From a virus (lineage: Duplodnaviria > Caudoviricetes), in IMG/VR virus record IMGVR_UViG_3300047160_036266, positions 64,001 to 128,000 of that record: a stretch of DNA of 64,000 nucleotides. One strand, given 5' to 3'. The position numbers and the translations under genes were made by a program. The notes beneath the pieces were generated by a model. It was given only the letters and a program-made list of their open reading frames with translations. It did no database searches and was not told the DNA's origin. Each line of letters starts with the position of its first letter. The first letter of the stretch is position 1. Of this stretch, positions 5,353-63,829 are shown piece by piece.

Positions 5353-6381
5353 TTACGATTTGGCAAGTCGTTGCTGGGTGTCCTGGGCGTACCGGGCGGA
5401 AAGCTCGATGCCGGTGTACATGCGGCCAAGGGTCTTGGCAGCGGTGGCGGTGGTGCCAGAGCCGATGAAGGGGTCGAGGACCAGATCGCCGGGCTTGGTG
5501 CAGATTTTAACAAATCGCTCGATGATTTGCTGGGGGAAGGGGCAAGGATGGTCAACACCCTTGATATTTTCCACCCGGCACTCCACGACATCCTTCTGCA
5601 TTGGCACGTCGTAGCAGCGGATTATACTAAAGCCATTTTCCCGGATTTGCGTGTTGCGCCCACCCTCCTGCCCGCCGTAAGCTTCCTTGTGAATGCCTCG
5701 AATCTTCATGCGGTAGCCAGGAAGCTTCCCGGATTCAACTTCGGCAACCACCTGATTAAGAGCCGCCAGGGCCTTCGCTTTCTCTTCGGTCGTCAAGTCG
5801 GAGGCGTCGATGTGCTTCCGATATTTCTCGCCCATCTTCTTGCCAGTCTTCTTCTTGGGGGGCTTGGATACTTCCACTTCTGGCTCAAGGTCGTCCAGAC
5901 AGAAATAGTAGTCCTTGGCCTTAACAAAGTGGAAGAACGGCTCGTGGCTGGTTATAAGGCGCTTGCGGAAAGTATGGGGCGTCGGGTTACTCTTCACCCA
6001 GCGCACTTCATTGATGAGGAACACGCCTTTGAAGGTGTCCAGCACGCGAATGGCGAACCGGGCGGGCACCATTTGCAGGCCATTGCTCAAATATTTGTCA
6101 CCGAGATTGAAAACAATACTGCCTTCATCCTTGGTGACTCGCAGACACTCGCAGAATACTGACAGGAGATGATGAATATAGCTCCCGACGCTCGACTCCT
6201 GACCAATCTCCCTGTCCGCCAGGCCAGCCTCAATACCCTCATATTGATGCTGCTGAAAATACGGCGGACTGGTGATGGTAAGCTGAGCCACTTTCGGTGG
6301 CAGTTGTTTGAGCAGGTCAAACACATCGCCCACCAAAATCTGGTTCTCGTATTTCTGTGGCTCCATAAACGACCGAAGCAT
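5353..6381 (-). CDS. DNA N4-cytosine/N6-adenine methyltransferase (beta class)
   Basis: ITSPPY catalytic motif; HPCPFP and VLDPFIGSGTT SAM-binding motif at C-terminus. Confidence 0.92.
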   Translation of the reverse strand: MLRSFMEPQKYENQILVGDVFDLLKQLPPKVAQLTITSPPYFQQHQYEGIEAGLADREIGQESSVGSYIHHLLSVFCECLRVTKDEGSIVFNLGDKYLSNGLQMVPARFAIRVLDTFKGVFLINEVRWVKSNPTPHTFRKRLITSHEPFFHFVKAKDYYFCLDDLEPEVEVSKPPKKKTGKKMGEKYRKHIDASDLTTEEKAKALAALNQVVAEVESGKLPGYRMKIRGIHKEAYGGQEGGRNTQIRENGFSIIRCYDVPMQKDVVECRVENIKGVDHPCPFPQQIIERFVKICTKPGDLVLDPFIGSGTTATAAKTLGRMYTGIELSARYAQDTQQRLAKS

Positions 6382-6452
6382 ATTCCCTCCTGAATAATGG
6401 AGTAATATGCTTCGATTCTAACATACGAGATGTTCGGGCGCAATAGCTGTTG

Positions 6453-6821
6453 CTAAGATATTTCCTCTGTCACCAAGTCATGCAGGCGGTCGCTCAGATC
6501 GTTAAAACGCTCGGTCATCTCAACGGTGACGCGACCGCCGCCCTGGGCGTTCTCAGAGAAGGTCAGGAGGGCTTCCTCGGCGGCGAAGGTGTCTTTGGAA
6601 TTGAGAGCTTCTTCGGCGGCGTCGAGCCACACCCCCATATCCATCTCTTTTTCCAGGCGGGTGCGCAGCGCCTCGTATCGTGGGTCCAGATCGGCAACTG
6701 GATAGAATTTGTTAAGCCGGGCGCACAAATAATTCACCATCCAGTGGTTGGCCTCCATCCAGTTCTGGGCCTCCATCGCACCCTCGGCGTTGTCCAACAT
6801 CTGCCGGGCCGACTCAAGCAT
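6453..6821 (-). CDS. hypothetical protein
   Basis: ORF in co-directional run overlapping its upstream neighbour. Confidence 0.6.
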   Translation of the reverse strand: MLESARQMLDNAEGAMEAQNWMEANHWMVNYLCARLNKFYPVADLDPRYEALRTRLEKEMDMGVWLDAAEEALNSKDTFAAEEALLTFSENAQGGGRVTVEMTERFNDLSDRLHDLVTEEIS

Positions 6822-7455
6822 ATTTCACCTTGCTGACAAAAGGCTTGATTTTATCGAGCAGAACCTTTTTCTGCTCCTCTACCTTCTTAGAGTAAGCCTT
6901 CCAAATAGTCAGATCAAGGGCAGCTATCGACATCCCCGCTTTATCCGCCAGGGCGATAAACAGCTTCTCAATGCGCCCGTATTGCTTGCGGCTGCCGGGC
7001 GTCCCCTCCGGCACACTATATCCCAGGTCACACAGGAACTTCAAAATATGCGTGTCCAGGCAGGCCACACGCGCATCCTTGCGGGTGTGCAAAATAAAAA
7101 AGCGGGCCGTCTTCGGTCCAACCCCGAACACCCGCTCCAGGTCTTCCGACTCCACCGTTTGCAGGTCGAAGTTCCGCCGAATCACGTCATAGATTGCCTG
7201 GGCCTTCAAAGAATGGCAACCCACGCCGTAGCGCTTCAGCATCGCCTGGAGGTCTTCCACCGAATATACCGCCAGGGAAGCGAAGGGGCGGAACCCCTCC
7301 AGCCCCAGCTTGTCATGGGCCTCCGTCAGCAGCGAGTCCAGCGACCGGGCAATCACCCTGGCCGTCTTGCCGGCCACCAGGATACTGAAGAGGGCGAACT
7401 CTTCGAGTTGGTGCTTGTTGAGGGTATAAGCGGTGCAGGTATCTGGATCAATCAC
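6814..7455 (-). CDS. HhH DNA glycosylase/lyase, OGG2-like 8-oxoguanine glycosylase
   Basis: VFGVGPKTARFFIL helix-hairpin-helix, LDTHI, C-terminal ALDLTIWK. Confidence 0.7.
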   Translation of the reverse strand: MIDPDTCTAYTLNKHQLEEFALFSILVAGKTARVIARSLDSLLTEAHDKLGLEGFRPFASLAVYSVEDLQAMLKRYGVGCHSLKAQAIYDVIRRNFDLQTVESEDLERVFGVGPKTARFFILHTRKDARVACLDTHILKFLCDLGYSVPEGTPGSRKQYGRIEKLFIALADKAGMSIAALDLTIWKAYSKKVEEQKKVLLDKIKPFVSKVKYA

Positions 7456-7469
7456 AAATCACGTCCTTG

Positions 7470-7703
7470 CTATAAAACGGCGACTTGATTCTGCGTCTCC
7501 ACCCAGCAGACTGCCCCGCAAGACAGAGGTTTATCAGGCCGATAAACAACACGAGCAACCTCCACGCCCTGGGAGTCGTAGATCACGACTTCCGTGGCGT
7601 AGCGGTTGCTCTTGTAGGTTTTGACGGTGAGTACCGGCTCGCGCTGGCCGGTCTTGCGGTTAGAGCGGATAATTGCCTGGTTGACGTGGATTATCGTTTT
7701 CAT
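7470..7703 (-). CDS. hypothetical protein
   Basis: short ORF in co-directional run; phage-like composition. Confidence 0.6.
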   Translation of the reverse strand: MKTIIHVNQAIIRSNRKTGQREPVLTVKTYKSNRYATEVVIYDSQGVEVARVVYRPDKPLSCGAVCWVETQNQVAVL

Positions 7704-9294
7704 ACCGCTCGAAGAGAGGCGTGGGGCGTCCTAAGTCCACAATATCCCGTGACACCCCTACATTATAATCCCCCTCCGGGAGTCGGCGGTAGAGGAAATC
7801 CTCCAAATAGCCTAAGTCCAAGTCCTCCCAGGACTTCTTGCTCTCGAAAGACTCCCAAATCTTGCGGCTGGTTCCCGGCAGGAACGGCTTCAGCATAATC
7901 GCCGTAACCCGCAGTCCATTCACAAGGTTGCGCAAAATCTGCGCCAGCCGCTCCGGCTCGGATTTGAGGGTCCAGGGCTTCATCTGGTCGATATATTCGT
8001 TCATCTTCCGCAGTTCCGACCAGATCAGCGCCAGGACATGCTTGTACTCACAATTCTCCACGCTCTCGGCATAGTCAGCGAAAGGCGTACCTCCGTGAAG
8101 GATGTTGCGAAAATCGCCCACGCTGGGGATCGAGCCGTCGAAGTATTTCAAGACCATGCTAATGGTGCGTTGGACCAGATTCCCCAGGTTGTTGGCCAGG
8201 TCGGCGTTGTACACATCCACGAAGTTGGCGAAGGTATAATCACCGTCGCTGGCGTAGTTACAGCGGCTCAGGAAATAATAGCGGTAGGCATCGCAGCCGA
8301 ACTCCTTCACCAGTTCCATCGGGTCGAGGAACTTACCGCTCTTGCTGGCCTTCCTGCCCTCGATGTTGATGAAGCCGTGGGCGAAGACCTTCTTGGGAAG
8401 CTCCACGGCGTACATCCGGCCCCCGACCCCCTCGTTGTAGGCCATAATCATGGCGGGCCAGAGTGCGCAGTGGAAACGGGTGATGTCCTTGCCGATGAAA
8501 TGAACGTCAGCGGGCCACCACGTCAGGTCCAGTCCTTCTTTGTCCAAACCCACGCCCGTCATGTAGTTGAGCAGGGCGTCGAACCAGACATAGATCACCT
8601 GGGTTTCGTCCCAGGGAACCGGGATGCCCCAGCCCTCGTTGCGGCGGCTGATGGAAATATCCAGGGGCGGCTCGTCCACCGGCTGCAAATCATAAGAAAC
8701 GAAGTTGACGACCTCGTTGTAGCGCGACTCCGGCTCGATCAGCAAATCCGACAGCCCGTTGGGCTTGGGGGCGAGCATATTCAGCAGCCGGATACGGAAC
8801 TTGGACAGCAGGAAGAAATAGTTCTCCTCCTCCGTGTGGCGAAGCTCCTGCTTCGGGTGGTTCGGGCAGCGGTCGTTCTCGATCTCCTTGGGAGTCTTGA
8901 AGGCTTCGCAGCCATCACAGTAGAGTCCTGAGTAGCGGCGCTTCTCAATATACCCGGCCTCCTTCACCATCTGGATGAAGTGCTGGACGCCTTCCCGGTG
9001 GCGCTGCTCGGTGGTCTGGATGAACTCATCAAAGGAAATGTCCAAGGCACGCCACACGGCTTTGAACTCTTCGGCCATGCGGTCGCAGTACACCTTGGGG
9101 TCTTCGCCAAGCTCACGGGCACGCTTGGCGACCTTCCAGGTATTCTCATCGTTGCCCATCAAAAAGAAAACATCGTCGCCTTTGAAGCGACGATAGCGAG
9201 CTTGCACGTCGGCCCCCACTTTCTCGAACGCCGTGCCAATGTGGGGGCGGCTGTTCGGGTAGTCAATGGCCGTCGTCAGATAAAAGCTGCCCAT
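7660..9294 (-). CDS. metG: methionyl-tRNA synthetase (monomeric type)
   Basis: YLTTAIDYPNSRPHIG (HIGH), GNDE, YVWFDALLNY, HFIGKDITRFH, KASKS (KMSKS), ADLANNLGNL. Confidence 0.96.
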   Translation of the reverse strand: MGSFYLTTAIDYPNSRPHIGTAFEKVGADVQARYRRFKGDDVFFLMGNDENTWKVAKRARELGEDPKVYCDRMAEEFKAVWRALDISFDEFIQTTEQRHREGVQHFIQMVKEAGYIEKRRYSGLYCDGCEAFKTPKEIENDRCPNHPKQELRHTEEENYFFLLSKFRIRLLNMLAPKPNGLSDLLIEPESRYNEVVNFVSYDLQPVDEPPLDISISRRNEGWGIPVPWDETQVIYVWFDALLNYMTGVGLDKEGLDLTWWPADVHFIGKDITRFHCALWPAMIMAYNEGVGGRMYAVELPKKVFAHGFINIEGRKASKSGKFLDPMELVKEFGCDAYRYYFLSRCNYASDGDYTFANFVDVYNADLANNLGNLVQRTISMVLKYFDGSIPSVGDFRNILHGGTPFADYAESVENCEYKHVLALIWSELRKMNEYIDQMKPWTLKSEPERLAQILRNLVNGLRVTAIMLKPFLPGTSRKIWESFESKKSWEDLDLGYLEDFLYRRLPEGDYNVGVSRDIVDLGRPTPLFERYENDNPRQPGNYPL

Positions 9295-33985: not shown

Positions 33986-34336
33986 TTAGCTGGTTGCTGA
34001 GTCTTCGGGAGGGGCCTTATCACCCGGCTGCGGCCCCGAACCATCCTGGGTACTTTTCGACAGCACATCCTTCCCTCCTTTGAGTATGTGGCTGGGATAG
34101 CTTATATAGCCGTCCATGCCCTCTTCTTGCTTCTTCTTCTCGTCGTACTCGAAGAAGGAGGAGTAGTTGTCGTTGATGATGACCTCCAGATCGTGGTGGT
34201 CGATGTAATAATCCTTGTATTTGCGGCGGTCCAGTGGGTCGTAGATGCGGAAGAACAACTGGCCGTCCACACCCCGGAGGAGGAAACCCTTGACGTGGTG
34301 GGCCGGCGTTTCATTGGGCTGGAGGGGTCTTGCCAT
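33986..34336 (-). CDS. hypothetical protein
   Basis: co-directional ORF. Confidence 0.55.
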   Translation of the reverse strand: MARPLQPNETPAHHVKGFLLRGVDGQLFFRIYDPLDRRKYKDYYIDHHDLEVIINDNYSSFFEYDEKKKQEEGMDGYISYPSHILKGGKDVLSKSTQDGSGPQPGDKAPPEDSATS

Positions 34337-35699
34337 GTGACATCACCTTTGGTTCGATTAGGGTTCCAGGCATGAAAATACCCATGTATTCACGCATGTC
34401 GTCGTAGATCGCCCGTAGCGTCCCCGTCATGGGATTCTTCTTGCACTCCTCAATGTGGACATCGCAGAAGTGGTGCCAGAAGAATGTGAAAAGCAGAAAA
34501 CCTGCCTCCGTCCAGTCATATTCCTCGAAGGCGGCGTTAATGCGCTTCTTAAAGTCCAGCCACTCATTCCAGACCGCCTCATTCTTGCCATCGTCAGTCT
34601 GCAAGTCCAAGAAACGCTTGGCGTTGCGCCACTTATTGACGCAGCGCTTGCCATATTCCATGACGACGGGGTTGATGCGGGCGTCGGACCCGACCTGGGG
34701 TTGTGCGGCCCAATAGCGGACGCCATCCGAAGTATGCTGGTCCATATACTTGCCAGGAGGGACGAAGTTGCCAGCCGTCTTGGAAATCTTCTTCCCTTTA
34801 TCGTCCAGAGCGTGCCCGCAGATCACTATGGTTCGCCACGGTATCTGGTCGTTGTGAAGGACGCTTTTGATGATTGTGAAGAGCGCCCAGGTGCGGATAA
34901 TGTCGTGCGCTTGGAAACGAACGTCGAAGATTGGGCATTTGAGAGTGAGTTCGTACTGGTTGGCCTCGTGCCAGGCTAGTTGCGGCGACAGGCTGGACGT
35001 GTGCCAGGTGTCAAAAACGATACCCGGCTCGCCGGGGATGGGGATGCCGTAGTTCCGTTCCCGGCTGATAGACCAGTCCGAATCGCACTGATCCAGCCAG
35101 GAGAGGAGGCGGCCCTTGTACATCTCCGGCTTCCAAACGATCTGGTCAATGGCGGCACGGATGCGGGGCAGGTTGTCGAGGACTTTGATGAACCAACCCT
35201 CACCCCGGCGAAGCTCGACCTTAGCACCACTGCGCTCGTAGCAACCGTCTTCGGTCAACTCATTTTGGGAGACGGAAACCTTGGTGAGCGGGCAGTAGTA
35301 GTATTCCCGCTCGGCCTTATACGCCTGGCCCTTGTCCACCAAGTCCTTGAAGGACAGTTCGGCCAGTTTGATGGCGAAGGGGCAGAAGGTGGTGTAGTGG
35401 TGCCAGGACCAGGCCATTGCCAGGCGCATGAAGAGAAGGTGGTAAGCGATGGACTCGTGGTAGGAAAAGTCAATGATCTTGTCCTGGTCGGTGATTCCAG
35501 CGGCCTGGGCGAGCTTTTCGGTGGGCAACCCGTTGTTGTCGTAGCAATAGGGGTAGACTAGGTATTCGCCCTTGATGTGGCGGTGGTAACGGGCAATGAA
35601 GTCCATTTGGGCGTAGCTGAAGACGTGCCCCATGTGGAGGTTGCCGCTAATCGTAGGCGGCGGACAGTCGATGAGAAAGCGTTTGTTCTTGTCGTGCAT
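34311..35699 (-). CDS. valS: minimal valyl-tRNA synthetase (462 aa, no CP1 editing domain, no coiled coil)
   Basis: PPPTISGNLHMGH, DNNGLPTE, DWSISRERNYGIPIP, FDTWHTSS, FQAHDIIRTW, KISKT, FFWHHFCDVHIE. Confidence 0.9.
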   Translation of the reverse strand: MHDKNKRFLIDCPPPTISGNLHMGHVFSYAQMDFIARYHRHIKGEYLVYPYCYDNNGLPTEKLAQAAGITDQDKIIDFSYHESIAYHLLFMRLAMAWSWHHYTTFCPFAIKLAELSFKDLVDKGQAYKAEREYYYCPLTKVSVSQNELTEDGCYERSGAKVELRRGEGWFIKVLDNLPRIRAAIDQIVWKPEMYKGRLLSWLDQCDSDWSISRERNYGIPIPGEPGIVFDTWHTSSLSPQLAWHEANQYELTLKCPIFDVRFQAHDIIRTWALFTIIKSVLHNDQIPWRTIVICGHALDDKGKKISKTAGNFVPPGKYMDQHTSDGVRYWAAQPQVGSDARINPVVMEYGKRCVNKWRNAKRFLDLQTDDGKNEAVWNEWLDFKKRINAAFEEYDWTEAGFLLFTFFWHHFCDVHIEECKKNPMTGTLRAIYDDMREYMGIFMPGTLIEPKVMSHGKTPPAQ

Positions 35700-35857
35700 G
35701 GTGGGTTTGTCCGGTGAGAGAGCGTGTGGAAACGACGGGGCCACGCTCCTCCACGGAGACGCAGCCCGAAGCCACGCCCACACGGACAACAAAACTAGCC
35801 GCAAGAACGGTCATGTAGGTATTATACGTCAGTGTCGCTCAAAACGCTACCCGAAAA

Positions 35858-35952
35858 TGCCCAGGGCGGGACTCGAACCCGCACGGGAGTTACCTCCCAC
35901 GGGATTTTAAGCCGACTTAAATCCCGTGTGTCTACCATTCCACCACCTGGGC
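35858..35952 (-). tRNA. tRNA-Leu(UAA) with 10-nt insertion in anticodon loop
   Basis: GCCCAGG/CCUGGGC acceptor, GGUA D-loop, long variable arm, UUCGAGU T-loop; anticodon loop is 17 nt UUUAAGUCGGCUUAAAA. Confidence 0.9.
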
Positions 35953-38366: not shown

Positions 38367-38381
38367 AGCAGTTCCTTAATA

Positions 38382-38628
38382 GGTAGCACACTCCCGTAAG
38401 CAGGATTCTGTTCTATGCCATCATTTATCTCACAGGCCGTGGTGGGCCTGCGGCCTTGCGGCTGCACCTACCAGACCCGTTGCCCTGCTCACCGGCTGGG
38501 TCTATTTGGTTTGCACCCTCCGGGGTGGTAGCGATACTGAGCCTTGCGGCTGTTCTCTCCCCCGTTAAGCAGTGGTGTCCTGACTTTCCTCTATCCCTTG
38601 CGGGACAGCGATGGCTCGGAGCGCTACC
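38382..38628 (-). ncRNA. rnpB: RNase P RNA, minimal (reduced S-domain)
   Basis: minus strand: P1 GGUAGC/GCUACC; P2 GCCAUC/GAUGGC; P3 GCAA tetraloop; CR I GAGGAAAGUCAGGA; AAAUAG; CR IV AGAUAAAUGAU; CR V AACAGAAUCCUGCUUA with compensatory P4 pairing CAGGA/UCCUG. Confidence 0.92.
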
Positions 38629-41185: not shown

Positions 41186-41221
41186 ACCATATAAATTGTC
41201 CTCGTGTTGAAATTCTTTTAG

Positions 41222-41305
41222 TGCCCCCGCCAGGACTCGAACCCGGACTCCCGTTACAGGAACTTGGGCCTAAGCCAAGCGCGTCTACCCTTTCGCCACG
41301 GGGGC
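41222..41305 (-). tRNA. tRNA-Leu(UAG)
   Basis: GCCCCCG acceptor, CUUGG-CUUAGGC-CCAAG anticodon arm, long variable arm, GGUUCGAGUCC. Confidence 0.95.
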
Positions 41306-46285: not shown

Positions 46286-47464
46286 TCAGCTTCCGTAATG
46301 CACCCGCTCCCCGAAAATATGCGGCACGAAGCGGCTCATATTTTGAGTGATGCGGCTGCCGTCCTCTCGGATGCCAATGCCGCAGGCCCAGCCGTTGACG
46401 ATCCAACTGCCGATGACCGGGAAGTGACCGTCAAAGTTGGGCAACTCCCAAAGCTCTTGATAAATCGCCGGGCCGGTGTACGGCCCTTCGGTTTCCTCCA
46501 CCTTGACCCCATGCTCGAACACGGCGATGTTGGCCCCCTCACGGGCCAGGATCGGCTTTTTCACATAATCGTTGATGCCGTGAATCTCCATGTCGGTGGC
46601 GTCGAAATATGCCGCCAACAGGTAGGTGTTGTTGGGATACAGTTCCCAGAGCGTTGGAAGCAAGGCTTTATTGCTGAGCAGCGACTTCCAGGGCGGCTCC
46701 CACCACTTGGTCCGGGCGCTGCGCAAGTAGGGACCGAACTGCTCGCGCATCAGCCATTCCCAAGGGTAGAGCTTGAAGATTTGTTTGATCTCCCGCTCCT
46801 GCAAGTCCGTGAAGATGCCGCTGGCATTGTTCCAGCCCACGTCGTCAATGTCCAGGTACTCTACTCCGGCGATGGGGCCAAACCCGGCCTGCACCGCCAC
46901 GTCCTTGAGATACTGGACGGTCATGTAGTCTTCCAGGTGGCCCTTGAGCGCCGCAAAATAAAAGCGCTCGTCACCGACCTCCTTATAGATGGTCTGGAAG
47001 ACTTCCATGAGGCGGTCGTGGATGCTGTTGAACTGGTCGCCCGCCGGGTGGACCGCCTTCAGCCAGTGCCACTGAATGACAGAGGCTTCCAGCAGGGCGG
47101 TCGGCGTGTCGGCGTTATACTCAAACAGCATGGGGTCTTTGCCGGGCTGGAAGCAGAAATCGAACCGCCCGTAAATACTGTGTTCGTCCTCCTCCCAGGA
47201 GCGGATGATATATTCCTCGTAGCCCGGCGGAATTTGAAAACGCTCAAAGAGGTTGTTGTCGATGACGTGCTGGACGACCGCCAGGCACATCTCGTTGAGG
47301 GCGTAGGTGGCCTTCTCGATCTGGTCAATTTCCTGGCGGGTGAACTCGTAGTACGCCGACTCGTTCCAGTACGGCGTACCGTCTTCGGACGTGTGAAAAT
47401 ACAAGCCCTGCTCTTCGACAATCTTTTGCCAGTTCTCACGAGGCTGTATTTCCACCCGTTTCAT
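46286..47464 (-). CDS. glutathionylspermidine synthase family ATP-grasp protein (YgiC/YjfC-like)
   Basis: YWNESAYY, GRFDF, EYNADTPT, QFNSIH, EPPWK, KKPILAREGANI, IGSW, RFVPH. Confidence 0.92.
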   Translation of the reverse strand: MKRVEIQPRENWQKIVEEQGLYFHTSEDGTPYWNESAYYEFTRQEIDQIEKATYALNEMCLAVVQHVIDNNLFERFQIPPGYEEYIIRSWEEDEHSIYGRFDFCFQPGKDPMLFEYNADTPTALLEASVIQWHWLKAVHPAGDQFNSIHDRLMEVFQTIYKEVGDERFYFAALKGHLEDYMTVQYLKDVAVQAGFGPIAGVEYLDIDDVGWNNASGIFTDLQEREIKQIFKLYPWEWLMREQFGPYLRSARTKWWEPPWKSLLSNKALLPTLWELYPNNTYLLAAYFDATDMEIHGINDYVKKPILAREGANIAVFEHGVKVEETEGPYTGPAIYQELWELPNFDGHFPVIGSWIVNGWACGIGIREDGSRITQNMSRFVPHIFGERVHYGS

Positions 47465-48866: not shown

Positions 48867-50150
48867 TTATACCGGCTTCCTGTCGGGCTGTAAAGCGATT
48901 CCGGGCGCGAAGCAGCGCAGCATGGGTAGCAGGGCTTCGACCGTCTGGGCGGAAGGTTTCTGCCCCTTATTCTTGTTGTAAAACTCCATGAGGGTCGAGA
49001 CAACCTTGTTGACCTTCCAACTACGCATGTAGTGATGGAGATTGGCGTGCAGGTCGGTGAGGTCGATGTCGTCTTGTCCCGGTTCGGCCAGCCAGCGGCG
49101 CAGTCGGCCCAGGAACCGGCGGATACCCGTAATGGCCTTATCATCCCAATCGCCGCCGTCCTGGTATGGCCCCAGGAACATGAGGTAGAGGCGCAGTTCA
49201 TCCGGGTCGTAGGCGTCCGGGTTGACGGCGTTGCCCTTGCTCTTCCCCATCTTGGCCCCGCCCGCCGTAATCATACCCTGGTGGATCACCTGTTTGAACG
49301 GTTCCTCCTCTTGCACGATCCCCTGGTCGTAGAGGAACATATTGATGAAGCGGGCGTAAATCAGGTGCATACAGGCGTGTTCCGGCCCGCCTACATACAG
49401 GTCCACTTGCTGATATTTCTCCGGGTGCAGGAACGTGTCCGAATCGTTTTCAAGATACCGGAGGAAATAAAAGCTGGAATCCACGAAGGTGTCCAGCGTG
49501 TCGGTTTCGCCCTCGACGGGGATCGGACAGCCCCAGCGGCGCTGGCGGGAAACGCACCAGTCGTGCAGGTTCTCCAGCCAGGCCCGCTGCTGGTTGAGGG
49601 TGCCGATGGGGTAGTCGATCTTGTCCAGGTTGGCGATCAGGCGGTCCTTGTAAGCCGTGGTGCGGAAGAACCACTGGTTGAGCGACCGCTGTTCAATCTT
49701 GGCCTGGCAGCGCTCGCAAAAGCCGCCGCCACACTGCTCTTTGGCCAGTACGGTGTCGCAGGACGGGCAGTAGTTGACGGGACCGAAGGCTTTGTAGGCC
49801 AGGCCGTTCTCGCGCAGCAGGGTAAAGAGCCATTGCGTCCATTTGATGTAGGATGGGTCGCACGTCACCAGTTTTTCCTGGTACACCGTGTTCATGTGTC
49901 GCATCTGGCCCCGGAAGCGTTCGATGTTGGCCCAGGTAACGGTGGCCGGGTCGCCGCCGATGGAACGGGCGTAGTTCTCGGCGGGCAGGCCGAAAGCGTC
50001 GTAGCCAAAGGGCTGGAAGACCTCGATGCCCAGGTAGCGCAGCCACCGGCAGTACGAGTCCACGATGGCGTAGTTGTAGTAGTGCCCCAGGTGCAGGCCG
50101 GCACCGGAGGGATACGGGAACATGACGCAGCAGTAGAATGGCTTGCTCAT
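48867..50150 (-). CDS. leuS: minimal leucyl-tRNA synthetase (427 aa; no CP1, no LS domain, no C-terminal domain)
   Basis: MFPYPSGAGLHLGH, GYDAFGLPAEN, QWFF, DWCVSRQRRWGCPIP, DTLDTFVDSSFYFLRY, YVGGPEHACMHLIYARF, KMGKSKGN. Confidence 0.95.
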   Translation of the reverse strand: MSKPFYCCVMFPYPSGAGLHLGHYYNYAIVDSYCRWLRYLGIEVFQPFGYDAFGLPAENYARSIGGDPATVTWANIERFRGQMRHMNTVYQEKLVTCDPSYIKWTQWLFTLLRENGLAYKAFGPVNYCPSCDTVLAKEQCGGGFCERCQAKIEQRSLNQWFFRTTAYKDRLIANLDKIDYPIGTLNQQRAWLENLHDWCVSRQRRWGCPIPVEGETDTLDTFVDSSFYFLRYLENDSDTFLHPEKYQQVDLYVGGPEHACMHLIYARFINMFLYDQGIVQEEEPFKQVIHQGMITAGGAKMGKSKGNAVNPDAYDPDELRLYLMFLGPYQDGGDWDDKAITGIRRFLGRLRRWLAEPGQDDIDLTDLHANLHHYMRSWKVNKVVSTLMEFYNKNKGQKPSAQTVEALLPMLRCFAPGIALQPDRKPV

Positions 50151-50323
50151 GACCTATGGTACTGTGGGATCGTCGGGTTGTTTAGTACGATTGGGCCACC
50201 ATGTCCGCATGTTGGCTTCTGCCGCCTCCTTGGGATAGCGCAGAAATAGGAAAATAAGAAACTCCCGGCGGACACCTTCCGGGAGTTGGTCGATCTTATC
50301 GAGAATGATCTTTTCGTCTTCGC

Positions 50324-51022
50324 TCATGACTTCTTCGCCCGTTCAAACCGCTTGCTATCACTATTATAAGCGGCAAATAGGCGGAATTCCTTGACCACGT
50401 TGATGTCCCAGAGGACGCCGCTGGCGCAGTCCCAGCCGTAATACCAGTGGGATTCCAACCGCTTCTGGTAGAGGTAGGGGTTAATTTCCACACCGGCGTA
50501 TTGTTCGGCCACGGCGGGCCAGTCAATGTAGTCCATGCGGAGCAGGCCCCGGTGCCGGCGAAAGGGCCGCATGAGTTCGGCCAAGCGCTCGTCCTGTTCC
50601 CAGGGCGGGCCGCAGGAGAATTCTTCCTCGAAGTCTTCAAACTCCTTGAGCGTGGTGATGACTCGCAAGCACTTTGGGTCCAATTCCAGTTCGTAGAAGT
50701 ATTTCTCGCTGCCCCGGAACTCGGCGCACAAACACCAGTCGGCCCAGGAGCCGTTTATTCCCCACCAGAAGCCGGTTGGGGTCGGTTCGCGCTTTTCAAC
50801 CGAGAAGATGGCGGGCTTGTAGTCGTGCTGGTCAGGCGGATATTCCACCTGGAGGCGGTTGATTTTCTTCTTTGACAGGTGCAGACGGTGCTTCCCCCGC
50901 AGGCGGTCGATGAACGTCCGCATCGCCTCGTTGATTGGACTCTCTCGGTGGCGACGTTGGTGGGCCTTCATTTTCTTGATGCTGGCTTCCATGTCCGGCG
51001 TCAAGTTGGGGTTTGGCTTCAT
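50324..51022 (-). CDS. hypothetical protein
   Basis: GAGGAG RBS; long ORF. Confidence 0.65.
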   Translation of the reverse strand: MKPNPNLTPDMEASIKKMKAHQRRHRESPINEAMRTFIDRLRGKHRLHLSKKKINRLQVEYPPDQHDYKPAIFSVEKREPTPTGFWWGINGSWADWCLCAEFRGSEKYFYELELDPKCLRVITTLKEFEDFEEEFSCGPPWEQDERLAELMRPFRRHRGLLRMDYIDWPAVAEQYAGVEINPYLYQKRLESHWYYGWDCASGVLWDINVVKEFRLFAAYNSDSKRFERAKKS

Positions 51023-51741: not shown

Positions 51742-51978
51742 TCATTTGCGCCAGGACTTCCAAAATCCGTCGTCCCAATAGGGTTGAAAGCTGGGGCAAC
51801 CGCAGAACGACGTATAATGTGATCCACAGCTTGCGCAATTATACTCGACCCCGCCGGAAAAGTCACCCGTCTTTTGCCACGGGTGGCCCCGCCAGCGGCA
51901 GAGCAATTTTCTTAGCGCCTTCACGGCCTTTTCCCGGAGTCGGGTCAGCAACGTGACCATAACACGCTCTCCCTTCAT
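51742..51978 (-). CDS. hypothetical protein with Zn-ribbon
   Basis: C..RGH.W...CASC. Confidence 0.45.
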   Translation of the reverse strand: MKGERVMVTLLTRLREKAVKALRKLLCRWRGHPWQKTGDFSGGVEYNCASCGSHYTSFCGCPSFQPYWDDGFWKSWRK

Positions 51979-52291
51979 GTCCTTCGGGGAGGTATTCGGT
52001 GATGGGCAGACCTTCGGGCGTAACGAACAGCAGGCAGTGGCAGTATTTCCAATTTTTCATTTCATCGCAAGCGCAGTTCCACTCCCGGCTGCGTTCGACC
52101 TGGGCCTTTTTCCCTTCCGGGTAGAAGTTACAAGGACACAAGGGCCGACCCACTTCATCCAAGTTGAGGGCCAGCCCTTGTATGACAGACTCAGTGACTT
52201 CGGGGTTCGGGTGTTTGGTGGTCCCGGTCTTCTCCCAATAAGTCTGGACGTACCTCTCGATCTTCCGCTTGGTTTCCGGCTTCGGTTCCAT
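51863..52291 (-). CDS. ferredoxin-thioredoxin reductase catalytic subunit
   Basis: GRPLCPC, CAC, YCHCLLF 4Fe-4S/disulfide motifs. Confidence 0.88.
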   Translation of the reverse strand: MEPKPETKRKIERYVQTYWEKTGTTKHPNPEVTESVIQGLALNLDEVGRPLCPCNFYPEGKKAQVERSREWNCACDEMKNWKYCHCLLFVTPEGLPITEYLPEGHEGRACYGHVADPTPGKGREGAKKIALPLAGPPVAKDG

Positions 52292-52292
52292 C

Positions 52293-52673
52293 TTATTTTT
52301 TGATCTCCTCAATGAAGTCAATCGCCATGCGCACCTTGGCCGCTCCGATCCGCTCGATCAGGTCCAGCGTGTCCTTGAGGCAAATCAGGGAGGAGGCCGT
52401 GTGGGGCTGCTTGAGATAGTCCGCCACCTTCTGCACGTCCTGCATGGTCAGTTCCAGCTTGTCGTTCTCCCGGACGCCGACCGGCAGGCCCATCCTGCGG
52501 CGAAGAGCGGCCCGCTCGGTCCAGAACATGGACGCTTCGCAGCCATTGGTGATGCCGTAGCGCCCGAAATAGGTGTCCACCTGCTGCCGAGTCGCCTCCG
52601 GCCCCAGCTTTTCAAGGGCCTCCTGGGCGATCTGCTGCCTCGTCTTGCCTTTGTACAGTTGCGGCTTGCCCAT
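52293..52673 (-). CDS. hypothetical protein
   Basis: GGAG RBS; co-directional. Confidence 0.6.
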   Translation of the reverse strand: MGKPQLYKGKTRQQIAQEALEKLGPEATRQQVDTYFGRYGITNGCEASMFWTERAALRRRMGLPVGVRENDKLELTMQDVQKVADYLKQPHTASSLICLKDTLDLIERIGAAKVRMAIDFIEEIKK

Positions 52674-53442
52674 CTGAAATCTCCTTCGGGTGTGTGGTGA
52701 GGATTCTGCAACCTTTGTCAGTCACGAGAACCGTATGCTCGTACTGTGCGCTTAAAGCCCCATCCTGGGTGCGGGCCGTCCATTGGTCAACTTCGTCAAT
52801 CACGGCTTCGGCCACGCCGAGATTTATCATTGGCTCGATGGTGAATATCATGCCTGGGCGCAGGCGTGGTCCCTCGCCCCTGACCGTGTTGTTATACGTC
52901 ACCTGTGGCTCTTCATGAAACTGAATGCCAACGCCATGCCCGCAGAACTGGTGGACCACGCTACAACCCTGCGACCGGGCGTACTTGTTAATTTCAAAAC
53001 CGATGTTGCCAAGCCTTTGGCCCGGCCACACGTTGGCAATGCCGATGTTCATGCACTTGTGGGCGACCGCCATGATTTTCTTGGCGTCATCCGAGACTTC
53101 ACCCACGGCAAACATATAGCTAGTGTCGCCGTAGTAGCCGCCGAGGATTGTGGTCACGTCGATGTTGACAATATCGCCGCCTTTGAGAATCTGCCCGCCA
53201 GGAATGCCGTGGCAAATGACCTCGTTGACGGAGATGCAAGTGGCCCTGGGGAAGCCGCAATAACCCTTGGGGGCTGGAAGGGCGGCGTGGTCGTAGATGA
53301 ATTTTTCAATTTGCAAATCCAGTTCGGAAGTCGTCACGCCGGCCCTTACGAATGGACGGATATATTCCAGGCATTCGCCGGCCAGCTTGCAACTCTGCTC
53401 AATGCCGACCACCTGCCGGGGAGTTTTGATAATGATGCCCAT
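52612..53442 (-). CDS. map: methionine aminopeptidase (type I)
   Basis: CISVNEVICHGIP, DIVNIDVT, GDTS, CGHGVG, HEEP, FTIEPM, SAQYEHT. Confidence 0.96.
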   Translation of the reverse strand: MGIIIKTPRQVVGIEQSCKLAGECLEYIRPFVRAGVTTSELDLQIEKFIYDHAALPAPKGYCGFPRATCISVNEVICHGIPGGQILKGGDIVNIDVTTILGGYYGDTSYMFAVGEVSDDAKKIMAVAHKCMNIGIANVWPGQRLGNIGFEINKYARSQGCSVVHQFCGHGVGIQFHEEPQVTYNNTVRGEGPRLRPGMIFTIEPMINLGVAEAVIDEVDQWTARTQDGALSAQYEHTVLVTDKGCRILTTHPKEISDGQAATVQRQDEAADRPGGP

Positions 53443-53527
53443 GCTTGTATTATAATGCACCAGCATCTCAAGCCCACGGTAGCGTTTGAAAAAGCCCGGC
53501 GGGAGGGTCGGCCCGCCGGGCTACGGG

Positions 53528-58003: not shown

Positions 58004-58015
58004 TCTTTTTGGGAG

Positions 58016-58099
58016 TGCCAGGGGAGGGAGTCGAACCCTCACGGGATTTCTCCCACCAGATTTTGAGTCTGGCGTGGCTGCCGATTACACCACCCTGGC
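58016..58099 (-). tRNA. tRNA-Leu(CAA)
   Basis: GCCAGGG acceptor, CCAGA-CUCAAAA-UCUGG, long variable arm, GGUUCGACUCC. Confidence 0.95.
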
Positions 58100-58302
58100 T
58101 AATTGGCCGACATCTTGCCGATGCCGTTACCCTGATGTGCCATTATAAGGACGGCTTCCTCACGAGAGAAACCTTCCGCCATCATAGCGTCGAGGGTTTT
58201 CTTATAGAGGCGGGCAGCGATTTTGAAAATCTCTTCCTGCTTTTCCGCCGCTTCCATCATATATTTGACGGCCTCAAACATCTCGTCTATTTGCTCGATC
58301 AT
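58099..58302 (-). CDS. hypothetical protein
   Basis: GGAGG RBS between two tRNAs. Confidence 0.55.
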   Translation of the reverse strand: MIEQIDEMFEAVKYMMEAAEKQEEIFKIAARLYKKTLDAMMAEGFSREEAVLIMAHQGNGIGKMSAN

Positions 58303-58316
58303 GGGAACCTCCAAAG

Positions 58317-58400
58317 TGTCCAGGGCGGGAGTCGAACCCGCACGCCCTTTCGGGCACCAGCCCCTCAAGCTGGCGTGGCTACCAGTTACACCACCTGGAC
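58317..58400 (-). tRNA. tRNA-Leu(GAG)
   Basis: GUCCAGG acceptor, CCAGC-UUGAGGG-GCUGG, long variable arm, GGUUCGACUCC. Confidence 0.95.
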
Positions 58401-58612
58401 AGGGGCGGCGGTTGTTACCTCTTGCCAGATCAACATTCTCGGCACGGGGGCCATTGAGAAGGTCATCTAAGCACCAGGGCCACGCTCCGTGTCAAAAGAC
58501 GACTCGGCGTTTACCTGGCTCTGGCAGACGACTTCCCCTTCCGCCGCCCGGTCGTCTACTCGATGGTATCGAAGACGCGCAATAGTCGGGGAAGAGGCCA
58601 AGACAGAGGCAG

Positions 58613-58695
58613 TGCCCAGGGTGGGAGTTGAACCCACACGCCCTTACGGGCACACGGCCCTGAACCGTGCGTGGCTGCCATTACACCACCTGGGC
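58613..58695 (-). tRNA. tRNA-Leu(CAG)
   Basis: GCCCAGG acceptor, CACGG-UUCAGGG-CCGUG, long variable arm, GGUUCAACUCC. Confidence 0.95.
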
Positions 58696-58707: not shown

Positions 58708-60357
58708 CTATCCTGCGGCGAGCGGGAGCGATACCCTTCCTGCCGGCTTTTGTTGCTGTTGCGCCTGACGCTTCTTGACATAATCACTAAAACTCGTCGG
58801 CGGCTGGGCAATGTCAAGGTCTTTGTCGAGGTACTGGCTGGCCAACTGGATGAACCTTTGATGCCATCGCTCATGCACCTGCGGGTCCGTATGGAACGAC
58901 TTTTTAATCTGGTTCTCGTCCCGGTCGGCATCGGACGCCACATGAATGTCGTTCTTCAACTCCGTGTCATCATATATCGCCAGGCTGTAAATGTTCAAGT
59001 GGCTGATGATGTCCTTGTTCTCCAACAACCAGTTGTAGGTTTTTCGGTAGGTTTCTTCTGTCTCATCAGGAAAGCCCACGATGATGTTCGGTATCAACCA
59101 GACATTGCCGCCCTCCTGGCGAATTTGCCGTATTTTCGTCGCTGCCAGGTCGATGCTCTTCTCCGTGGCCGGCTTCTTCTGGCTTTTGAGGATGAAGTCG
59201 TTATACGACTCAATCCCCAACTCAATGAACCGTATCCCCGCCTCCTTGATAAACTCGTTGGGCAGCCGCTTACTGGCCATCGTGGAAGCCGTTGTCTGGA
59301 CCACAAACCCCTGGAAATTGGGGTTGCGTTTCTTAATCTCCCAATAGATTTCCGGCAGGAGAGTGTAGTTGTTGGCCTGGCCGAAGGTCTTGTCGTTAAT
59401 GTATACCAGCTTGGACTTTAGCTGGGACAGCGCCTTGGCCTCCTGCTCGATGGTTTCGGTCGGGACTTCCTCCAGCTTGCGCGACACGTCGCAGAATTTG
59501 CACTTGTGGCGACAACCGCTGCTCATACACAGCCTGGGGATGACCGCCGTTCCTCTGAAGAGGTTATAATCGGTGCCGCCCTCCATCCCGCCTTTCTTGT
59601 GCTTTTGTTCGAGGATGAAGTCCTGCATACTGTTGAACACATGCACGTTTTTGAACGGGGCGAATTCTTCCGCCAGGTTGGTGCTGTAGCCGCCCACGGC
59701 AATGGCCCCTGGATAGCTCTGCGCAATGCGCTTAACCTGGGGCAGCACCACGTCCATGACCGAGAAGATGACCTCCTTATATTTCGCCTGGTTGAAGAAC
59801 TGGATCGCTTCGTTCACGTCCCGGACAACGTAAAAGTCAACATTGTTGAGGTTGCGGGAGATGACGGCGACCCAATATGGTACTTCCCAGAAGTCCTCTG
59901 GCTTCTCGTAACCCTGCCGCTTGGCGTACAGCTTCTCGTAATATTCGTCGGCGTAGTTGGGCTTGTGGGTGTACAAGGTCTTGGCGGCGAACTGACAGGC
60001 CAGGATTCGGTCATGGTTGTTAGGGTCCGCCGAGTGTTTCACCCAAATATTTTTTGTCTCTCTGGCTGGGTCGGCGGCTCCGTGTTGGTAATACGGATAG
60101 GCGGTCCCGTAGGGTGTTTTGTCCTTGAAGGAGGCTGGGGCCTGGTGGCCTAGTTCATCGCTCAGGTCGTGGATGTAGCGGTTGAAAACCGGGTCGTTGT
60201 AATCGGGTGCCTGGCCCTGCTGCCGCTCCAACTCGATGATCTTACGCAGATGCCCTTGGTAGAAGGCATCCGGTTTGCCGGGGAAATAACGCTGGAGGCG
60301 GGCCAGATAGTCGTCAGCTTTGGACTCAATGCTTTCGAGAAACCTACGGAAGCGCAT
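58708..60357 (-). CDS. radical SAM protein (B12-binding class B-like architecture) with N-terminal extension
   Basis: SSGCRHKCKFC (CxxxCxFC), YINDKTF, ELGIES, IIVGFPDET; upstream alpha/beta domain with AVGG. Confidence 0.8.
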   Translation of the reverse strand: MRFRRFLESIESKADDYLARLQRYFPGKPDAFYQGHLRKIIELERQQGQAPDYNDPVFNRYIHDLSDELGHQAPASFKDKTPYGTAYPYYQHGAADPARETKNIWVKHSADPNNHDRILACQFAAKTLYTHKPNYADEYYEKLYAKRQGYEKPEDFWEVPYWVAVISRNLNNVDFYVVRDVNEAIQFFNQAKYKEVIFSVMDVVLPQVKRIAQSYPGAIAVGGYSTNLAEEFAPFKNVHVFNSMQDFILEQKHKKGGMEGGTDYNLFRGTAVIPRLCMSSGCRHKCKFCDVSRKLEEVPTETIEQEAKALSQLKSKLVYINDKTFGQANNYTLLPEIYWEIKKRNPNFQGFVVQTTASTMASKRLPNEFIKEAGIRFIELGIESYNDFILKSQKKPATEKSIDLAATKIRQIRQEGGNVWLIPNIIVGFPDETEETYRKTYNWLLENKDIISHLNIYSLAIYDDTELKNDIHVASDADRDENQIKKSFHTDPQVHERWHQRFIQLASQYLDKDLDIAQPPTSFSDYVKKRQAQQQQKPAGRVSLPLAAG

Positions 60358-62649: not shown

Positions 62650-62651
62650 AG

Positions 62652-62725
62652 TAGCACGGGTGGGAATTGCACCCACGGCATCTCAGTTTTTGAAACTAAG
62701 TGGTCTACTGTCTGCCTACCGTGCC
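62652..62725 (-). tRNA. non-canonical 74-nt tRNA, anticodon CAA (Leu codon UUG)
   Basis: GGCACGG/CCGUGCU-A; 6-bp stem CUUAGU/ACUGAG, loop UUCAAAA; T-arm GUGGG-UGCAAUU-CCCAC. Confidence 0.8.
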
Positions 62726-62728
62726 ATA

Positions 62729-62841
62729 TCCCGTGACAGGAGCATTGCGGTTTTGCGGCTGCGCCGCCTTTACCCCGCTCGCATTAGCCCCATGTCACCT
62801 GCATCCCGATGCGAGCCGTTATGACAGGTCGAGTCACGGGA
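62729..62841 (-). ncRNA. candidate structured RNA inside tRNA array
   Basis: 9-bp terminal helix UCCCGUGAC/GUCACGGGA, internal helices and 8-bp GCUCGCAU/AUGCGAGC pairing; abuts tRNAs on both sides. Confidence 0.55.
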
Positions 62842-62843
62842 AG

Positions 62844-62917
62844 TGCCCAGGGCCGGAGTTGCACCGGCGGCATCACTGGTTCTAAGCCAATGTGGTCTGC
62901 TGTCTGCCTACCTGGGC
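62844..62917 (-). tRNA. non-canonical 74-nt tRNA, anticodon UAG (Leu codon CUA)
   Basis: GCCCAGG/CCUGGGC-A; CAUUGG-CUUAGAA-CCAGUG; GCCGG-UGCAACU-CCGGC. Confidence 0.82.
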
Positions 62918-62920
62918 AAG

Positions 62921-62994
62921 TGGCACGGGTGGGAATTGCACCCACGGCATCGCTGGCTCTCGACCAACGTGGTCTACTGTCTGCCTACCGTGCC
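62921..62994 (-). tRNA. non-canonical 74-nt tRNA, anticodon GAG (Leu codons CUC/U), C33
   Basis: GGCACGG/CCGUGCC-A; CGUUGG-UCGAGAG-CCAGCG; GUGGG-UGCAAUU-CCCAC. Confidence 0.8.
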
Positions 62995-62998
62995 ATAG

Positions 62999-63072
62999 TG
63001 CCCAGGGTGGGAGTTGCACCCACGGCATCAGAGGTTCTGGACCTCTGTGGTCTGCTGTCTGCCTACCTGGGC
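62999..63072 (-). tRNA. non-canonical 74-nt tRNA, anticodon CAG (Leu codon CUG), C33
   Basis: GCCCAGG/CCUGGGC-A; CAGAGG-UCCAGAA-CCUCUG; GUGGG-UGCAACU-CCCAC. Confidence 0.8.
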
Positions 63073-63075
63073 CTG

Positions 63076-63423
63076 TTATTGAAGTCGATCTCGGATACTT
63101 TCAAACCACTGGATGAACTTTTCTTTGTTTGGATGTTGCCCTTGCGACACAACCTCCACCGCACGGTCCAGGGCGTAGTGCATATTGCCGATTAGGTCGT
63201 TGAGCCATCGACCCTTGGGGATTGCCGATCTGAGCGCCTTGGCGTCCGCCGGCAAGTGCTGGGCATAAGCCTGCATATTGTGCAGGAGGTTTCCGCCCAT
63301 GTCCCAGCGCCCTTTTAACATTTCCTGCGCTAACCGACCCAGCTTCGTGGTGTTGACCAGGGCATTGGTGACTATCTCTTGGGCTACGTCAGCGGCCTCC
63401 AGCCATTGTCGGAAGGTACTCAT
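63076..63423 (-). CDS. hypothetical protein, probable virion-internal
   Basis: N-terminus MSTFRQWLEAAD. Confidence 0.6.
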   Translation of the reverse strand: MSTFRQWLEAADVAQEIVTNALVNTTKLGRLAQEMLKGRWDMGGNLLHNMQAYAQHLPADAKALRSAIPKGRWLNDLIGNMHYALDRAVEVVSQGQHPNKEKFIQWFESIRDRLQ

Positions 63424-63443
63424 GGAGTTATGTAGGCTTCCCG

Positions 63444-63743
63444 CTACCAAAACGGGTCGCTGTCGGGCTTGCACTCCTCAAAGCCGCCTTCCTTGTCAAA
63501 CATCCGTTCCCACAAGGTCGCGTCCCGATATAGTTCGATGGTCCGGGCTGAACTGCAACAGTCGTGGTAATCATAAGGGTCTTGCTCGTGCAATTCGAGG
63601 TAGGTTGCCTTGTCCTCGAAGAGAATATGCGTGAGCGTCACTCGGTCCTGGCCGAAGCGGCTGACCTTCTGGCCCCGGAAGGCCACGATATTCATGCCGA
63701 TCAGGTCGGTCCACTTCGGAATGCTGGACTTTTTCTTTGCCAT
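63444..63743 (-). CDS. hypothetical protein
   Basis: GGAGGG RBS overlapping tRNA 3' flank. Confidence 0.6.
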   Translation of the reverse strand: MAKKKSSIPKWTDLIGMNIVAFRGQKVSRFGQDRVTLTHILFEDKATYLELHEQDPYDYHDCCSSARTIELYRDATLWERMFDKEGGFEECKPDSDPFW

Positions 63744-63755
63744 AATTCCCTCCAG

Positions 63756-63829
63756 TGGCACGGGCCGGACCTGCCCCGGCAGCATCACTGATTTTAAGTC
63801 GGTGTGGTCTTCTTCTTGCCTACCGTGCC
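63756..63829 (-). tRNA. non-canonical 74-nt tRNA, anticodon UAA (Leu codon UUA)
   Basis: GGCACGG/CCGUGCC-A; CACCGA-CUUAAAA-UCAGUG; GCCGG-GGCAGGU-CCGGC. Confidence 0.78.

Follow-up and report, generated by a model that had tools for sequence, protein, structure and literature searches.

The window analyzed in this study, a stretch of 64,000 nucleotides covering positions 64,001 to 128,000 of the IMG/VR virus record IMGVR_UViG_3300047160_036266 (Duplodnaviria; Caudoviricetes), contains a gene for a reduced, bacterial-type leucyl-tRNA synthetase (LeuRS) of roughly half the usual length. The record is 343 kb long, derives from soil and has a CheckV completeness of 69%. The gene (48867–50150, minus strand) encodes 427 amino acids followed by a stop codon, and its product, which we call mini-LeuRS, has intact catalytic motifs but lacks the CP1 editing domain, the second insertion (ZN2), the leucine-specific domain, the C-terminal domain (CTD) and the N-terminal helix of canonical LeuRS. 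It belongs to a large and strongly conserved huge-phage family that has apparently not been described so far. This family is under purifying selection and restricted to phages, its genes are linked to tRNA-Leu genes, and the missing domains are not encoded elsewhere in the genomes that we searched. On balance, mini-LeuRS is probably a working phage LeuRS that does not edit and needs no CTD to charge tRNA-Leu. The identity of the gene as a LeuRS is not new, and some family members already carry the JGI label "leucyl-tRNA synthetase"; what is new is the conserved CTD-less architecture. No account of a LeuRS without a CTD, or of a mini-LeuRS in phages, turned up in the full-text literature outside subscription journals and supplementary tables.

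Domain architecture and predicted fold

The assignment of the gene is based on the list of open reading frames (ORFs), its translation, a match to TIGR00396 and a fold match. TIGR00396 (leuS_bact) is the top curated family with 380.5 bits, followed by ValRS with 134 bits (IleRS and MetRS do not exceed this value), and all top matches in a phmmer search of the PDB are LeuRS (E = 7e-82). Thermus thermophilus LeuRS aligns with mini-LeuRS in four collinear blocks (residues 36–228, 418–436, 487–579 and 636–700 of the T. thermophilus enzyme), and therefore CP1 (approximately residues 229–417), the second insertion (437–486) and the leucine-specific region (580–635) are precisely absent. At the CP1 junction, L192-E-N-L-H-D197 (49560–49577; all features of the gene lie on the minus strand), T. 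thermophilus residue 228 abuts residue 418 at mini-LeuRS residues 193/194, with a loss of about 190 editing-domain residues. At the ZN2 junction, P211-V-E-G-E-T216 (49503–49520), residue 436 abuts residue 487 and about 50 residues are gone; the ZN2 columns are occupied in every other aligned relative apart from P0123, a protein to which we return below. The position of the leucine-specific domain, where residue 579 abuts residue 636, is taken by the short linker ITAGGA (residues 294–299; 49254–49271), and the family consensus around this linker reads QGMITxDGAKMSKS. A Pfam scan of the protein gave no match to PF13603, the CP1 editing domain.

The synthetic site is retained. The HIGH motif is present as HLGH (residues 20–23; 50082–50093), with H20, G22 and H23 invariant in 27 family members, and the KMSKS motif as KMGKS (residues 300–304; 49239–49253), with K300, M301, K303 and S304 invariant in the family. 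The ZN1 zinc knuckle is kept as well (C128, C131, C145 and C148; 49707–49769), each of its cysteines being at least 90% conserved. The segments MFPYPS, GYDAFGLP, DTFVDSSFY and GGPEHACMH, which align with the leucine pocket of the T. thermophilus LeuRS structure, are identical or conservatively substituted relative to T. thermophilus and invariant in the 27 relatives.

An AlphaFold model of mini-LeuRS, for which the 27 relatives served as input, has a pLDDT of 90.2 and a pTM of 0.90. Residues 1–423 of the model superimpose on residues 34–554 of Mycoplasma mobile LeuRS (Z 36.3, root-mean-square deviation 2.1 Å, 423 residues aligned), and the model also superimposes on residues 31–793 of T. thermophilus LeuRS (Z 36.0, 2.4 Å, with 42% identity over 422 aligned residues); Foldseek agrees with LeuRS as the structural match. 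Because the superposition reaches residue ~793 of the T. thermophilus enzyme, the helical anticodon-binding domain is present and the CTD is missing. According to the model, the helical domain is kept in a compact form (residues ~356–423; 48882–49085), with helices predicted at 337–355, 365–376, 380–394 and 401–411, and the protein terminates there; the N-terminal ~30 residues are absent, too. The anticodon-domain part of the sequence stays under the Pfam Anticodon_1 threshold.

A preliminary description, made from the sequence alone, had portrayed the gene product as a 427-residue LeuRS without CP1, ZN2, leucine-specific and C-terminal domains and with intact HIGH and KMSKS motifs, and the ORF, the phmmer blocks, the superposition and the family alignment all bear this out. 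Its domain inventory had passed over the loss of the N-terminal ~30 residues and the retention of the ZN1 knuckle. The leucine-specific insertion is absent as it had stated, but this feature does not set mini-LeuRS apart, since it is also lacking in 18 of the 20 relatives aligned, among them all four of full length. The term "near-urzyme" was overstated: the Rossmann fold, ZN1, the CP core, the stem-contact fold and the helical anticodon-binding domain are all kept.

We also considered a longer form of the protein, as the hidden Markov model match extended 54 nucleotides upstream across an in-frame TAG codon into an ORF of 57 codons. The corresponding upstream in-frame sequence in 24 relatives is unrelated and rich in stop codons, and this extension by read-through was dismissed as a coincidence. 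The small ORF (50154–50327, minus strand) ends with its TAG one codon (3 nucleotides) ahead of the LeuRS ATG and in the same frame, a spacing suggestive of translational coupling; of the relatives, only the closest one (locus L007) also has this ORF, there in a different frame.

Distribution, selection and evolution of the family

To define the family we relied on a search that covered 5.8 billion proteins and returned thousands of matches, the counts given here being taken from the best 120 clusters. These share 64–88% identity with mini-LeuRS, 115 of the 120 are 409–443 residues long, and many family members sit on contigs of 100–630 kb. IMG/VR contains about 55 contigs, up to 608 kb in size, with a contiguous copy at 52–84% identity, and the 635-kb huge phage genome LR745206.1 in GenBank encodes a copy at 61% identity. 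No member was found among cultured phages in a search of deposited phages, or in 185,579 species-representative bacterial and archaeal genomes. The best cellular matches are segments of ordinary LeuRS with at most 49% identity, interrupted at the CP1 junction, and one paralog from Calothrix. The latter (locus L036; Calothrix anomala FACHB-343 contig77, 6001–7512) is a CP1-less LeuRS-like protein of about 504 residues with an Anticodon_1 domain and 38% identity, presumably a paralog of the normal leuS. A different LeuRS-like gene of about 503 codons, in a single piece and at 32% identity, is found at 191955–193463 of the 735-kb huge phage records LR756501.1 and LR756503.1, and its product also appears to lack CP1.

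Selection on the family is strong. Pairwise dN/dS values range from 0.07 to 0.15 at dS values of 0.75–1.7, and 139 of the 427 columns in the alignment of the 27 relatives are invariant, every catalytic motif among them.

The architecture would be read differently if the missing domains were encoded as separate genes, the finding that the preliminary description had named as fatal to its view, but none was found either in the phage's own genome or in five complete or near-complete relatives. In the own genome, PF13603 gave no match even at an E-value of 1; there is no second LeuRS-type gene and no match to the LeuRS model past position 752, and the Anticodon_1 matches are limited to MetRS and a ValRS-like gene. 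The five relatives, four of which are rated 97–100% complete by CheckV (two with terminal repeats) and the fifth being LR745206.1, are huge-phage genomes of 452–635 kb in which the form of about 426 residues is the sole LeuRS; none has a free CP1 gene, and weak PF13603 matches occur only inside class Ia synthetases of about 740 residues. An apparent extension of mini-LeuRS past the stop codon in LR745206.1 turned out to be the start of a separate downstream gene.

In a FastTree phylogeny of 154 sequences, which is approximate and midpoint-rooted and in which some mid-length sequences may be partial gene calls, the mini family forms a single clade (SH-like support 100) with a long stem (0.57). 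Its sister group (SH-like support 96) consists of forms of 569–580 residues that lack CP1 and retain ZN2 and the CTD. The remaining CP1-less forms are scattered in the tree, and CP1 loss has therefore been recurrent. Inside the mini clade, a sub-lineage comprising P0123 and the viral loci L195–L198 (IMG/VR contigs; proteins P0123 and P0272–P0275) has the same scaffold without ZN2 and CTD, and carries a CP1 remnant of about 115 residues exactly at the CP1 junction (PF13603, 74 bits). Its threonine-rich and Asp motifs are kept, as TTKPET and GTG.VMGVP.DD.RD..FA, and a comparison of the remnant between L195 and L198 gave pN 0.27, pS 0.73 and a dN/dS of ~0.13 with dS near saturation. This module may be the smallest natural LeuRS editing module. 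To our knowledge, an editing site has no use other than with a charged tRNA. A selected mini-CP1 on a CTD-less scaffold thus suggests that the scaffold handles charged tRNA, which is the strongest indirect argument for charging that we have.

Linkage to tRNA-Leu genes and proposed function

The phage record contains 12 tRNA genes according to ARAGORN, 8 of which are tRNA-Leu genes. Three of these are armless, and a pattern search for the D-arm raised the number of armless genes to five, with none expected by chance. Altogether there are ten tRNA-Leu genes, all on the minus strand and all with A73. The five with a long variable arm are a group of three (CAA, GAG and CAG; 58015–58695; found by ARAGORN, two also by the Rfam tRNA model), tRNA-Leu(TAG) at 41221–41305 and a 95-nucleotide tRNA-Leu(AAG) at 35858–35952 directly upstream of the gene for the ValRS-like protein (the last two identified by both ARAGORN and Rfam). 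The five armless tRNAs of 75 nucleotides (CAA, TAG, GAG, CAG and TAA; ARAGORN and D-arm pattern) are located at 62651–63829. Across 24 related loci, tRNA-Leu genes account for 29 of the 61 tRNA genes within 2.5 kb of the mini-LeuRS gene and for 8 of the 85 located further away (odds ratio 8.7, p = 2e-7, for loci that are not phylogenetically independent). Long tRNA-Leu genes are linked as closely as short ones, which makes charging of both kinds plausible. The five long-arm tRNAs are probable substrates of mini-LeuRS; the five armless ones may be substrates as well, but not its exclusive partners.

From these data we infer that mini-LeuRS activates leucine and charges tRNA, and we also infer how it recognizes the tRNA and which physiological role it has. 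Leucine and ATP would be bound in a canonical LeuRS active site with formation of leucyl-adenylate, an activation that is expected because the synthetic site is canonical, and leucine would then be transferred to tRNA-Leu, long and armless, encoded by the phage and possibly by the host. A proofreading step would be missing; as there is no CP1, post-transfer editing should not take place, and some mischarging with near-cognate amino acids is to be expected. The tRNA would have to be held without the elbow-binding CTD, presumably via its acceptor end (A73), ZN1, the stem-contact elements and the compact helical domain. The likely role would be a high supply of Leu-tRNA-Leu for phage translation, together with the ten tRNA-Leu genes of the phage. 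A precedent is the LeuRS of M. mobile, which is active without CP1 and without the leucine-specific domain, charging being independent of both as long as KMSKS is preceded by a short and flexible linker (PMC3643597); in the phage family, xDGA occupies this position. A bolder version, which we consider possible but rather doubtful, is that mini-LeuRS is the smallest natural LeuRS, fully competent in charging, which would need no elbow, variable arm or anticodon and would read nothing but the acceptor end (A73) and the upper stems.

Several observations weigh against the reading of mini-LeuRS as a charging enzyme. Deletion of the CTD abolished aminoacylation in both T. thermophilus and E. coli LeuRS, in which this domain contacts the G19:C56 elbow pair of the tRNA (PMC3561953), and we found no element in the phage that would compensate for its loss. 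No protein-coding neighbor is conserved across 25 mini-LeuRS loci as a possible partner, and the own genome encodes no significant tRNA_bind (PF01588) protein. Compensation by charge was likewise rejected, the median isoelectric point being about 6.6 both for the mini core and for the same columns of full-length LeuRS, with only the C-terminal part of mini-LeuRS slightly less acidic. The whole-protein score lies below the TIGR00396 equivalog cut-off of 548.4 bits, because domains are missing. As regards expression, the public sequencing runs containing the stretch are soil-metagenome DNA only, with no RNA run listed. Finally, Sulfolobus LeuRS-I is a conserved LeuRS paralog that binds tRNA-Leu and forms Leu-AMP, but fails to aminoacylate (PMC9437257).

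The CTD deletions, the Sulfolobus paralog and the score under the cut-off would all fit an enzyme that activates leucine for a purpose other than tRNA charging and might supply Leu-AMP to another acceptor or act as a sensor, decoy or regulator that binds leucine or tRNA-Leu. Class I cores reused for non-tRNA ligation (MshC and PyrN) match the model as well, at Z 27–28, but the LeuRS matches at Z 36 are far above them, and neither a carrier protein nor a biosynthetic gene is conserved beside mini-LeuRS. Moreover, the gene is tightly linked to tRNA-Leu genes and is the sole LeuRS in phages with up to ~50 tRNAs and several other synthetases, and the CTD-less sisters retain a selected editing remnant that is sensible only with charged tRNA. 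We therefore regard a non-charging role as unlikely.

Still less probable is that mini-LeuRS works only with the armless tRNA-Leu set, as its orthogonal partner, and not with long-arm tRNA-Leu. The loss of the CTD, the reader of the elbow and the variable arm, would suit armless tRNAs, and several related loci have armless tRNA-Leu genes no more than 2.5 kb from the synthetase gene; the armless set in the window even has a remodelled elbow. This set differs from those of the closest relatives (L016) by a change of TTGG to ACAG in the D-loop and of TTCGA to TGCAA in the T-loop, and the replacement of G18 by A together with that of T by G at position 55 is a possible covariation of the 18:55 tertiary pair. 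The armless tRNA-Leu of most other relatives, however, have a normal GG / TTCGA elbow, and long tRNA-Leu genes are equally close to the synthetase gene. In addition, the relative G004, a complete genome of 519 kb with terminal repeats, encodes mini-LeuRS and four tRNA-Leu of 80–88 nucleotides, but no armless tRNA-Leu according to ARAGORN. Conversely, the 75-nucleotide armless tRNA-Leu of a relative matches 183 deposited phage records by blastn (in 100 of these the match spans at least 80% of the tRNA), and the phage groups listed among these records (Vibrio, Mycobacterium, Pseudomonas, Felix O1-like and other phages) have no LeuRS-like match, so that their armless tRNAs must rely on the host LeuRS. 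The statement of the preliminary description that the enzyme is a likely partner of the atypical tRNAs does not hold in this form. Phage T5 was dropped as an example of a phage with armless tRNA-Leu, since its tRNA-Leu(UAG) measures 85 nucleotides by ARAGORN.

That the gene is a decaying, functionless remnant of a captured host leuS, as its large internal deletions might suggest, is very improbable and effectively already refuted by the selection data, given also its open frame, tightly conserved lengths in the family, invariant catalytic motifs and confidently predicted fold.

Long variable arms are not confined to tRNAs with Leu anticodons in related huge phages. G004 (loci L116–L142) and the loci L008, L013, L019, L022 and L023 contain long-arm tRNAs of about 84–91 nucleotides with anticodons for Glu, Asn, His, Lys, Trp, Thr, Met, Ile, Cys, Asp, Arg or Gln. 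Examples in G004 are located at 344620–344705, 420793–420880, 421003–421089, 422329–422414, 428161–428246 and 429717–429802; most of these long-arm tRNAs of this genome adjoin a tRNA of normal length with the same anticodon, and its long-arm Glu(UUC) tRNA has A73 and sits within the tRNA-Leu cluster.

Comparison with known systems and implications

Among characterized enzymes, the LeuRS of M. mobile (PDB 3ZIU, 637 residues) is the best structural match. It has a 9-residue linker instead of CP1 and a GKDG linker instead of the leucine-specific domain, and it charges tRNA but is error-prone (PMC3643597, PMC3553970), with estimates of misincorporation at Leu and Phe codons in this organism that reach about 1 in 200 (PMC3553970). 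Both enzymes thus have these two domains replaced by short linkers. The phage protein, however, is 210 residues shorter, has almost no linker at the CP1 junction and also lacks ZN2. The phage model matches only residues 34–554 of the M. mobile enzyme. Nothing in it corresponds to the M. mobile C-terminal part, to additional residues inside the matched stretch or to the first ~30 residues, and we take the unmatched C-terminal part to include the M. mobile CTD. The likeness is architectural, between a bacterium with a reduced genome and a phage-restricted family. The canonical enzymes of T. thermophilus (1H3N) and E. coli (4AQ7) share with mini-LeuRS the catalytic core, ZN1, the stem-contact fold and the start of the anticodon-binding domain, and differ by having CP1, ZN2, the leucine-specific domain, the CTD and the N-terminal helix. 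The metagenomic proteins P0124 and P0127 of the sister group lack CP1 at the same junction as mini-LeuRS, but keep ZN2, an Anticodon_1 domain detectable by Pfam and a CTD, and sit on contigs of about 5 kb.

Urzymes, which comprise about 120–130 residues and lack the CP insertion and the anticodon-binding domain, include the engineered LeuRS urzyme LeuAC (~130 residues), which is 4–5 orders of magnitude slower than the full enzyme (PMC9026127). LeuAC and the phage protein are both reduced LeuRS catalytic cores without an editing domain, but the latter is three times larger, natural, and keeps the CP and anticodon-binding modules. Synthetases as such are not new in huge phages: Al-Shayeb et al. 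(2020) reported up to 15 per phage and proposed that they charge phage tRNA variants (PMC7162821). The mini-LeuRS family is present in the genomes of that study, as the copy in LR745206.1; its main text contains no mention of a truncated or editing-less LeuRS (PMC7162821).

The window contains further genes of note, all on the minus strand. A ValRS-like protein of 497 residues (34311–35804) lacks both the CP1 editing domain and the C-terminal coiled coil and is the second editing-less class Ia synthetase of this phage; it aligns with residues 32–219, 348–413 and 451–664 of T. thermophilus ValRS and has HMGH as its HIGH and KISKT as its KMSKS motif. A MetRS of 544 residues (7660–9294; TIGR00398, 420 bits, above the cut-off) has an anticodon-binding domain, but no C-terminal tRNA_bind appendix. 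A mini RNase P RNA (38379–38627) covers the full RF00010 span in 249 nucleotides (E = 1e-20; 65.9 bits, under the gathering score). A general link between mini-LeuRS and this RNA was rejected, as the RNA was not detected in four complete mini-LeuRS relatives. Other genes encode a DndB-like protein (3966–5237), a glutathionylspermidine-synthase-like protein (46286–47464), a ferredoxin-thioredoxin-reductase beta-like protein (51863–52321), a methionine aminopeptidase-type M24 peptidase (52612–53466) and a MiaB/RimO-like radical SAM enzyme adjoining the tRNA-Leu cluster (58708–60357).

LeuRS serves as a model for how synthetases are built from modules, proofread and recognize tRNA, and experiments with the T. 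thermophilus, E. coli and Mycobacterium tuberculosis enzymes have made its CTD look essential. One large and strongly selected phage lineage has nonetheless dropped CP1, ZN2, the CTD and the N-terminal helix while leaving the rest nearly invariant, and its sub-lineage with a half-size CP1 represents a natural deletion series for editing studies. If mini-LeuRS charges tRNA, it would define the true minimal requirement for bacterial-type leucylation and overturn the view of the CTD as indispensable in bacterial-type LeuRS. It would also offer a small, editing-free scaffold for minimal or orthogonal translation, perhaps in combination with phage tRNA scaffolds. In the phage studied here, mini-LeuRS could then belong to a trimmed tRNA toolkit, together with the reduced ValRS and the RNase P RNA, whose specificity domain is collapsed, and huge phages would tolerate or exploit unedited decoding of Leu codons.

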